Positions 5,662 through 6,986 of a stretch of DNA of 40,128 bases are shown piece by piece. The stretch's first letter is position 1. Each line of letters opens with the position of its first letter. The notes beneath the pieces were generated by a model that did not search any database, was not told the origin of the DNA, and worked only from the letters and a program-made list of their open reading frames with translations. The translations under genes were made by a program, and so were the position numbers. This stretch comes from Escherichia phage mEp506. Location of the stretch: sequence record PV340542. One strand, given 5' to 3'.

Positions 5662-5691
5662 GCAAAGAAAACCCGGCGCGGTGGCCGGGTT
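5662..5691 (-). terminator. rho-independent terminator ending the hicA-hicB-secB-like operon
   Basis: Minus sense AACCCGGC-CACCGC-GCCGGGTT followed by TTTTCTTTG, immediately after the stop at 5697. Confidence 0.65.
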
Positions 5692-5696
5692 GGAGA

Positions 5697-6122
5697 TTAT
5701 TTTCTAGATGATGTTGGGGACCAAGGTAACGTTATAGTATCTAACACTGTGTTTTTGAACATATTTTCAAAAACTGTTTTTGTACATACATATACATAAT
5801 TTTCAAAAAACCAAGCATTTTCATTATAAAAATCCTCAGTTACTTCTTCATCGAGGTCACACTCAAATGTTAGTGTCAAGGTAGCCTCTGCCTTGAACAA
5901 TACATCCTCACCATCATCAAAATCTTTTTTATCGCGAGGGAAACCAGTTATCGATGGCTTAACTTCAATAAAGAGCCAATTTCCATCTTCATCTTTTTGA
6001 GGAACAACGTGATGCTCAGAAAATTTTAAGCTATATTTTCCGCCTTCAGAATTATCACTGTCGTCGATAAAAAGGGAAGAACCCTCGAGATCAAATCCCT
6101 TAAAGCGAATTTTATCAAGCAT
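5697..6122 (-). CDS. SecB-like candidate chaperone (141 aa); third gene of the HicAB operon
   Basis: Start ATG overlaps the hicB stop (TGATG). Strand/helix pattern (KIRFKGFDLEG; WLFIEVKPSITGF; VLFKAEATLTLTFECD; AWFFENYVYVCTKTVFENMF; LDTITLPW) resembles E. coli SecB by eye. Functional call is tentative. Confidence 0.45.
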   Translation of the reverse strand: MLDKIRFKGFDLEGSSLFIDDSDNSEGGKYSLKFSEHHVVPQKDEDGNWLFIEVKPSITGFPRDKKDFDDGEDVLFKAEATLTLTFECDLDEEVTEDFYNENAWFFENYVYVCTKTVFENMFKNTVLDTITLPWSPTSSRK

Positions 6123-6580
6123 CAATGTGGCACTCCGTTGTCTACTGAAACTTCCCAATAGGTCTCTTCTGTACGTCTACGGGATGAGAAGAAAGTAACT
6201 TCTCTAACATCCCTCGGTTTTTCAAAGTGGTAGTGAACCTCTTTTTTCCCATTAACTGACTCACTGACAGCCTGTTTTACATAATCGTTTAAAGTCATAT
6301 TCTTAGCTTTAGCAGCTAAATATGCTTTTTTATGCAGGGATTCACCTATCCGGATGTTAAACGAACCACTCATTGTCTTATCTGGAGATTTTCCTATCTC
6401 TTCACAAGTGGAGAGGTAATCGTCCACGGCCTCCTCAAAGGCTGCACGGAGTTCTGCAACCGTTGCACCCTCATAAGTGACGAGATCATTTATACATTCG
6501 AGTTTTCCATGCATCACCCCATCTTCAAATGAAATGCTGGAGCTACCATAGTAACCTTTGTATTTCATCAAGTTATTCAT
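6122..6580 (-). CDS. hicB: HicB-family antitoxin with about 45-aa C-terminal extension
   Basis: N-terminal MKYKGYYGSSSISFEDGVMHGKLECINDLVTYEGATVAELRAAFEEAVDDYL and SGSFNIRIGESLHKKAYLAAKAKNMTLNDYVKQAV are typical of HicB; start overlaps the hicA stop. Confidence 0.8.
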   Translation of the reverse strand: MNNLMKYKGYYGSSSISFEDGVMHGKLECINDLVTYEGATVAELRAAFEEAVDDYLSTCEEIGKSPDKTMSGSFNIRIGESLHKKAYLAAKAKNMTLNDYVKQAVSESVNGKKEVHYHFEKPRDVREVTFFSSRRRTEETYWEVSVDNGVPH

Positions 6581-6827
6581 GATCATCAATCTCATCTAAC
6601 AGCTGTTTAACTTCTTCCAAGACGTACCTTTTGAGGGTGTTTTCAGGATGAGGCTCATGAAAAATGACCAATCTATCAACACGTTGGTTGTAAAATTTAC
6701 GGCCAGAACCTCGTTTAGCATTCAAAAGCTTGAAGCCATACTGGTTCATGAGAGTAACGAACTCATCCCAAGTAAAATTTTTGGGTAAGCCGTCTAACTT
6801 TGACTTTAGCTTTTCCTTTCTTCCCAC
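6573..6827 (-). CDS. hicA: HicA-family toxin (YcfA-like), GTG start
   Basis: GFKLLNAKRGSGRKFYNQRVDRLVIFHEPHPENTLKRYVLEEVKQLL fits the HicA pattern (GS-x-R-K-F ... HP); toxin-first order as in hicAB; AGAGGA RBS upstream. Confidence 0.7.
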   Translation of the reverse strand: MGRKEKLKSKLDGLPKNFTWDEFVTLMNQYGFKLLNAKRGSGRKFYNQRVDRLVIFHEPHPENTLKRYVLEEVKQLLDEIDDHE

Positions 6828-6855
6828 GAAGGATACATCCTCTGTTAAAGGTAGT

Positions 6856-6875
6856 GCAACTGAAATCTAGTTGCA
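6856..6875. promoter_or_regulatory. palindrome gcaactgaaatctagttgc upstream of hicA (candidate HicB operator)
   Basis: Perfect 6-bp inverted repeat with a 7-nt spacer in the hicA 5' region. Confidence 0.3.
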
Positions 6876-6986
6876 AGCTATGCTATCTATAGACAAAATG
6901 TTTCATTGTTATATCAGAAGATACCCGATCTGTTTCACCTTCAACTACTATAATTTGTTATAAGCTATCAACCGGTGGAACTGCGA

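Follow-up and report, generated by a model that had tools for sequence, protein, structure and literature searches.

A candidate toxin–antitoxin–chaperone operon, hicA-hicB-hicC, in the immunity region of Escherichia phage mEp506

The window considered here is the whole 40,128-nucleotide (nt) stretch of DNA from Escherichia phage mEp506 (sequence record PV340542). Between cI and pL/N, in the slot which is occupied by rexAB in phage lambda, it carries three overlapping genes, hicA, hicB and hicC (also referred to as gene 3). The operon probably displays a tripartite toxin–antitoxin–chaperone (TAC) architecture, in which a HicA-family toxin and a HicB antitoxin with a long C-terminal tail are accompanied by a small protein predicted to adopt the SecB fold. 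The gene structure, the protein families, the predicted fold of HicC, the tail of HicB with its predicted disorder, the synteny and the putative operator were established in this analysis. By analogy with characterised TAC systems, there is about an even chance that the HicABC module plays a role in anti-phage defence.

Organisation of the hicABC operon

All three genes are located on the minus strand and overlap by 8 nt and 1 nt, with one promoter/operator upstream and one terminator at the end. The initial annotation had described tightly coupled genes with their own ribosome-binding site, an upstream palindrome and a strong terminator, and each of these elements was found again at the same coordinates or a few bases off. 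The features of the operon are the following (aa, amino acids; RHH, ribbon-helix-helix; ChAD, chaperone-addiction):

6855-6876, unstranded: palindrome TTGCAACT-N7-AGTTGCA, putative operator of HicB (RHH), based on its count against shuffled sequences and on an eight-locus alignment
6837-6842, minus strand: Shine-Dalgarno sequence GAGGAT, 9 nt upstream of the hicA GTG, read from the sequence
6573-6827, minus strand: hicA, 84 aa, GTG start; HicA-family toxin of a non-canonical subfamily
6122-6580, minus strand: hicB, 152 aa; HicB antitoxin with an N-terminal HicB domain (residues 1-62), an RHH (about 72-110) and a C-terminal tail (111-152)
6125-6250, minus strand: codons of the HicB tail (residues 111-152, GKKEVHYHFEKPRDVREVTFFSSRRRTEETYWEVSVDNGVPH, 42 residues past the RHH), candidate ChAD element
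5697-6122, minus strand: hicC, 141 aa, acidic with an isoelectric point (pI) of 4.4, predicted SecB fold; candidate TAC chaperone
5662-5691, minus strand: intrinsic terminator, equivalent of Timm, with the stem AACCCGGC/GCCGGGTT and a T-rich tail

The GGAT of the Shine-Dalgarno sequence is unchanged throughout the alignment of eight loci, and the GTG of hicA at 6827 pairs with ATG in three divergent relatives. The ATG of hicB at 6580 overlaps the stop codon of hicA (6573-6575) by 8 nt. This start was preferred over the ATG at 6568, which is used in PV340539.1, because the N-terminus MNNLMKYKG is conserved in the homologues of HicB. The ATG of hicC and the TGA of hicB share one base (TGATG, 6120-6124), and the homologues of HicC all begin with MLDKI or MLEKI. 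A longer open reading frame (ORF) of gene 3, initiated at TTG and coding for 153 aa, was rejected since the homologues all start at the ATG of the TGATG overlap. The triad with the same overlaps is conserved in Pantoea, Klebsiella, Citrobacter and metagenomic prophages, which clearly indicates that the three ORFs are real and did not arise by chance.

The palindrome occurs once in the window, while no occurrence was expected from 100 shuffles. In eight otherwise divergent loci, one of them a two-gene hicAB locus, it is invariant at a distance of about 30-50 nt upstream of hicA, and the DNA flanking it could not be aligned. A plausible sigma-70-like promoter (TTGCAA-17 nt-TACCTT), recognised by eye and absent from the list produced by a consensus promoter scan, overlaps with the palindrome. 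Judged from the sequence, the layout of promoter, palindrome and Shine-Dalgarno sequence is that of a classic toxin–antitoxin operon autoregulated by an RHH antitoxin, in which HicB would bind to the palindrome. At the other end of the operon, the stem of the terminator (5670-5691) consists of 8 base pairs, six of them GC, and is followed by TTCTTT. An equivalent terminator is labelled Timm in EF120460.1. No minus-strand terminator was predicted between cI and hicA, so that read-through from pRM into the operon is also possible, as for rexAB of lambda.

Protein families, HicC fold and conservation of the triad

The assignment of gene 1 to HicA and of gene 2 to HicB, already proposed in the initial annotation, was borne out by profile searches, in which both proteins scored above the curated Pfam thresholds. 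None of the outcomes named there as refuting the proposal was encountered. HicA matched PF07927 (HicA_toxin) over residues 20-73 with 32.1 bits (cut-off 27). In PHROGs it corresponds to phrog_8887, annotated as toxin (E 3e-34), and NCBI gives the name HicA family toxin to its close homologues. HicB matched PF05534 over residues 55-104 with 66.9 bits (cut-off 21), and PHROGs concurs with phrog_9151, a HicB-like antitoxin. Spurious matches alone were obtained when HicA and HicB were compared with PDB sequences using phmmer. The AlphaFold2 (AF2) model of HicB displays a confident four-stranded sheet with a helix (residues 1-62) and the two helices of the RHH (80-110). Its top matches in the PDB are the HicB structures 6g26/6g1n of Burkholderia pseudomallei (E 3e-3, probability 1.00, template modelling (TM) score 0.34-0.38), the low TM score being due to differences in the orientation of the domains and in the tail.

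No match of HicC was obtained in Pfam, NCBIfam, PADLOC or the PDB sequences (phmmer), and in PHROGs it belongs to phrog_19522 of 'unknown function'. The AF2 model of HicC (predicted local distance difference test (pLDDT) 79, predicted TM score 0.73) shows four long strands in antiparallel arrangement and, after them, a long helix, and the top 18 matches of this model in a Foldseek search of the PDB are all SecB-family chains. The best of them (E 1e-5, TM 0.65-0.70) is the TAC chaperone Rv1957 of Mycobacterium tuberculosis, crystallised together with its antitoxin's ChAD peptide; sequence identity between HicC and the HigBA1-Rv1957 system (PDB 5MTW) is 13-14%. The next matches are the SecB proteins of E. 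coli (1QYN) and Haemophilus influenzae (1FX3), which share with HicC the four long antiparallel strands, the long helix (TM 0.64-0.67) and a strongly acidic character. They differ from it in their housekeeping context, whereas hicC belongs to a toxin–antitoxin operon, and no sequence homology between them and HicC was detectable. The initial description of gene 3 as SecB-like is thus supported at the level of the predicted fold; at the sequence level it did not stand, as no Pfam SecB match was found.

When 5.8 billion proteins were searched by word index, 12 close relatives of HicC were obtained, in Enterobacterales, and a profile search run exhaustively over 1.84 billion representatives delivered 60 clusters (50% identity). 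Every member retrieved with the profile whose context was examined lies beside a hicB gene. Short direct and inverted repeats (TGTTTTTGAACATA / ATTTTCAAAAA) are clustered at 5750-5809, within the 3' part of hicC. They overlie codons of the long HicC helix (…YVCTKTVFENMFKNTV…) and may simply mirror a repeated peptide pattern.

The tail of HicB is predicted to be disordered (pLDDT <50 at residues 123-152 in the AlphaFold model). Among 55 homologues it varies more than any other part of HicB, and it retains three patches of aromatic residues (K-E-x-H-[YFM]-H-[FIV]; F/Y; W) as well as a terminal H. ChADs were described as variable C-terminal extensions (PMC5105189). They are intrinsically disordered, and their aromatic residues are accommodated in equivalent pockets on the SecB(TA) tetramer (10.1101/2024.02.24.581848). 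As read from the alignment and the structural model, the tail of HicB carries the signature reported for these elements. One HicB protein without the tail (P0203, 124 aa, 53% identical in the core), ending just after the RHH, is encoded in a two-gene hicAB locus without hicC. Two further short proteins were discarded as tail-less HicB: P0107 (114 aa) ends 56 nt from the end of its contig, and P0163 (119 aa) stems from a long-read copy with frameshifts, downstream of which remnants of hicC are found. On the long-read metagenome contig L019 (2501-3091), a frameshifted hicB-hicC was observed in which the called HicB has 119 aa, and remnants of the tail and of hicC are present in other frames; such a copy might wrongly be taken for a HicB that naturally has no tail.

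Genomic contexts were examined for HicC-family members showing 72, 57, 47, 40, 29, 29 and 21% identity to HicC and for a member from the nin region of E. coli. In each of the nine distinct intact loci (9/9), in which HicC identity ranges from 72% down to 21%, the HicC-family gene comes directly after a long hicB (152-205 aa) and overlaps it, with hicA or a hicA-like gene upstream, and the order toxin-antitoxin-chaperone is therefore kept. The HicC-family loci are all found in accessory slots of prophages, either between cI and N, in the nin region or beside an integrase gene. Those between the repressor and N are associated with at least five different repressor types, and those in the nin region are located between hok and DUF968-rusA-Q. 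Of the three proteins, HicA is conserved best, with 85-88% identity in prophages of Pantoea and of metagenomic origin, where HicC shows 57-72%. The tail and HicC diverge in step and faster than HicA and the core of HicB, as illustrated by locus L010, where identity to the window amounts to 76% for HicA, 68% for the HicB core, 26% for the tail and 44% for HicC. Such a pattern would be expected from co-evolution of tail and chaperone, or from an arms race acting on the sensor.

Two arrangements of the cassette were noted. In the cI-N slot of loci L014 and L015 (1599-2920), the first gene codes for a 102-aa HicA-like protein which keeps a histidine at the canonical position (DGHRVF) and has no Pfam match on record. 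It is associated with a 205-aa HicB displaying a much longer tail and with a HicC homologue of 29% identity, and tail length and toxin type thus appear to vary around one chaperone family. A hicA(82)-hicB(158)-hicC(144) triad, present in many E. coli genomes (192 collection blocks), is located in the lambdoid nin region (L020/L021, 1874-3396), directly downstream of the type I toxin gene hok/gef and upstream of DUF968-rusA-Q, that is, two toxin systems share one moron slot.

The TAC reading and its alternatives

TAC systems with a HicAB core were listed in a catalogue in 2012, and their validation followed in 2016 (PMC3581621, PMC5105189). The HicAB-SecB(TA) system of Methylomonas methanica MC09 is functional, and its dependence on the chaperone was demonstrated by experiment (Bordes et al. 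2016, PMC5105189). Similarly to HicABC, it combines HicA, an RHH-type HicB with a C-terminal extension and a chaperone in one operon. It is chromosomal, whereas HicABC is phage-borne, and its chaperone is described as a recognisable Pfam SecB, about 53% identical to the chaperone of a Vibrio TAC, a description by which HicC is set apart from it. The HigBAC system of E. coli NT1F31 is encoded in a lambdoid prophage 'downstream of the cI repressor'; it is anti-phage, and its chaperone senses gpV of lambda (Mets et al., 2024, bioRxiv 10.1101/2024.02.24.581848). HigBAC and HicABC are both three-gene operons for a toxin, an antitoxin and a SecB-fold chaperone in the variable lambdoid slot downstream of cI, the place of rexAB in lambda, and in both the tail of the antitoxin is disordered with spaced aromatic residues. 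They differ in the core, which is HicA/HicB (dsRBD-like toxin, RHH antitoxin) in HicABC and HigB/HigA in HigBAC, and in the length of the tail (42 and 96 residues, respectively). HigC was found as a homologue of SecB, while HicC is devoid of sequence-detectable SecB similarity. The M. tuberculosis TAC, a chromosomal system with the RelE-like toxin HigB and described in the context of stress response, is unlike HicABC in these respects.

Database records also precede this analysis. A protein identical to that of gene 3 is labelled 'HicC chaperone' in PV340539.1 (mEp234, GenBank 2025), and hicA and hicB in the slot of mEp234/HK106 have been annotated since 2007 in EF120460.1, where gene 3 was then 'hypothetical'. 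Literature searches retrieved no paper describing this HicABC system. The initial view that TACs are known from mycobacteria and that a HicAB core in a lambdoid phage would be unusual is outdated, as PMC5105189, 10.1101/2024.02.24.581848 and PV340539.1 came before.

Several observations weigh against the interpretation of the operon as a TAC. The Pfam score of HicA is just 5 bits over the threshold, and the canonical catalytic histidine of the GSH motif is absent, the aligned residue being G42 (R or K in relatives). Pfam SecB (PF02556) was matched by none of the 54 sequences in the HicC-family alignment, and a comparison of the HicC family profile with the PDB gave no match. An alignment of HicC with E. 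coli SecB by hhalign reached E 0.28 in a sensible structural register and was not counted as evidence. As the sequence signal is absent, the homology of HicC with SecB rests on the predicted structure, which derives from a shallow alignment of 10 sequences. The correlation between the tail and hicC has a single tail-less comparator (P0203), and no PADLOC model matched any of the three proteins of the module. SecB sequence homology was the criterion by which TACs were defined in 2012-2016, and HicC falls outside that definition when homology is taken as a match to PF02556.

For the operon as a TAC, we infer RNase activity, chaperone dependence, tetramerisation, a trigger and a defence phenotype, which would combine as follows. 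The cassette would be a moron in the cI-to-pL slot of a mEp234/HK106-like lambdoid phage. It would be transcribed from its own promoter under repression by the RHH of HicB via the overlapping palindrome, and in lysogens probably also by read-through from pRM, with translational coupling of the three ORFs. HicA, a toxin with HicA fold and presumably an mRNA interferase, would be neutralised by the N-terminal domain of HicB. The disordered and aromatic 42-residue tail would make HicB unstable unless it is bound by HicC, presumably a tetramer, and the system would in this sense be 'addicted' to the chaperone. Upon infection, an abundant protein of the incoming phage, by analogy with HigBAC probably a structural one whose aromatic residues follow a similar pattern, would compete for HicC. 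Once HicC is diverted, HicB would be degraded and HicA released, the infection would abort, and the prophage would thereby exclude other phages in RexAB's place. The trigger and the abortive step are drawn by analogy, since the chaperone of HigBAC recognises gpV of lambda, and also from CmdTAC (10.1101/2024.02.24.581848; PMC11618068; PMC9519451).

A wider proposal is put forward tentatively. HicC might be the founder of a sequence-orphan lineage with the SecB fold (about 60 clusters, outside Pfam, NCBIfam and PADLOC) which, in all loci examined, is tied to non-canonical HicA and HicB in prophage slots. It might serve there to sense phages in a new system of abortive infection, in which the rapidly co-diverging pair of tail and HicC would set the specificity of the trigger and H57/H60, instead of the classical GSH histidine, would form the catalytic centre of the toxin.

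Three alternatives were weighed, all of which rank below the TAC reading. The module could be a genuine TAC that serves mainly to maintain the prophage or to control growth under stress (post-segregational addiction) and not to exclude other phages. This would be in line with classical toxin–antitoxin biology, with the M. tuberculosis TAC described as stress-responsive (PMC3581621, PMC5105189), with the presence of the module also beside integrase genes and in nin regions, and with the lack of a PADLOC match. Such a role is nevertheless unlikely to be the main one, as all characterised E. coli TACs (MqsRAC, CmdTAC and HigBAC) are anti-phage, one of them in the same slot (10.1101/2024.02.24.581848; PMC9519451), the slot downstream of cI is a recognised locus for defence morons, and an arms race accounts better than housekeeping for how rapidly HicC and the tail diverge.

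In the second alternative, an ordinary HicAB pair would travel together with a SecB-fold accessory protein, serving as a holdase for phage proteins, as an anti-defence decoy or as an independent sensor acting on HicA. Indeed, HicC does not resemble characterised SecB(TA) chaperones in sequence, proteins with a SecB fold act as general holdases, and a solitary phage-encoded SecB is known from PhiCD119 (cited in PMC3581621). We consider this quite improbable, however, because hicC always overlaps the stop codon of hicB and never occurs apart from a long-tailed HicB in the nine distinct loci, because tail and HicC co-diverge while the tail-less relative is devoid of hicC, and because the top structural match of HicC is specifically a TAC chaperone bound to its antitoxin.

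The catalytic histidine of HicA toxins lies in a G-S-H motif (H36 in Streptococcus pneumoniae, H24 in B. pseudomallei and H23 in E. coli). In the HicA of the window, GSGRKF is found in place of GSH, together with an invariant HEPHP. A profile of the HicA subfamily reached S. pneumoniae HicA (5YRZ) at E 0.29, which served for residue correspondence and not as proof of homology; kGSHIKM stands opposite rGS[G/R/K]RKF. Residues G40, S41, R43, K44, F45, H57, P59, H60, P61, K66 and Y68 are invariant in the subfamily. The set GS[GRK]RKF...H[EC]PHP is unchanged down to 37% identity and is also present in the tail-less two-gene relative (L022). From their conservation, H57 and H60 might substitute for the missing histidine. 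The motifs suggest a widespread branch of HicA with a different active-site arrangement, to which the chemistry of canonical HicA would not be directly transferable. The RNase activity of HicA is presumptive, because the GSH histidine is missing. That the module is decayed and non-toxic, with a catalytically dead HicA in a cassette left over as a transcriptional regulator, is very improbable: G42 in the position of the canonical histidine and the marginal Pfam score would agree with it, but the same motif set persists in divergent HicA proteins and in the intact two-gene relative, the strongest conservation of the three is that of HicA, which argues against decay, and the three ORFs have stayed intact across many genera, which points to purifying selection acting on a protein that is active through a different catalytic arrangement.

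If the TAC reading is correct, HicA would be the third toxin family among the experimentally tractable anti-phage TACs of E. coli. The module would be available in a classic and genetically easy lambdoid phage (mEp234/HK106), in the slot of RexAB, the oldest known exclusion system. TAC chaperones would also reach beyond SecB sequence searches, and surveys starting at Pfam SecB would undercount TACs, because chaperones of the HicC type are invisible to SecB sequence models. A HicA without the GSH histidine offers a test case for how HicA toxins cleave RNA. The gain is incremental, since TACs, HicAB cores and prophage defence in this slot were known and the gene was already labelled 'HicC chaperone'. 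The module is a correctly identified, uncharacterised addition to the established TAC class, the novelty of which had been overstated earlier. It is mildly unusual for a chaperone lineage unseen by SecB sequence models and for a HicA without the canonical histidine.

The genomic slot and neighbouring genes

The window is a mosaic lambdoid phage with mEp234 as its nearest relative, to which 71% of the first 25 kb can be matched at 98% identity. Over the segment 5600-7000, identity with the immunity regions of mEp234 and HK106 is 99.1%, and among 5,426 complete E. coli genomes, 6 contain this segment as well. The minus strand carries, in this order, cI, a 32-aa YoaK-family ORF, hicA, hicB, hicC, the terminator, oL-type repeats and N. 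The elements flanking the module are the following:

7242-7946, minus strand: cI repressor, Peptidase_S24 (E 4e-16) and a weak HTH_3 match; labelled cI in mEp234 records
6988-7086, minus strand: 32-aa ORF, YoaK small membrane protein (NCBIfam equivalog, E 5e-15, 54.9 bits with a cut-off of 32)
5451-5486: oL-type repeats AATGATAAATT, sequence repeats
4809-5192, minus strand: N antiterminator on the pL side of the slot, Pfam N_peptide (E 2e-15)

With a Peptidase_S24 cI on one side and oL-type repeats and an N_peptide protein on the other, the position of rexAB between cI and pL, to which the operon had been assigned initially, was confirmed. RexAB of lambda and HicABC have in common the slot between cI and Timm/pL, the strand and the potential for co-transcription with cI. 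Both are prophage-encoded, and by analogy both plausibly exclude phages by abortive infection. RexAB is a two-component membrane-depolarising system, whereas HicABC would be a toxin–antitoxin module of RNase type, and the two are not homologous. No Rex domain was found among the three proteins of the module in Pfam, NCBIfam and PHROGs. Homology with Rex was consequently rejected, and the genomic position alone is common to both.

In several related prophages, a gene of about 69-74 aa lies between hicC and N, on the opposite strand (L004 5481-5690, L007 2390-2599, L010 3440-3649 and L014 2949-3173), and belongs to DUF2767 where it is annotated by Pfam. The window contains no equivalent ORF between hicC and N, where just the terminator and pL/oL are found.

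The YoaK ORF represents a small membrane protein of host type inside the immunity region of a phage, and it could be co-transcribed from pRM. A YoaK ORF is present at the equivalent position in a Pantoea prophage (L002 4022-4120), where it is preceded by a DUF333 gene.

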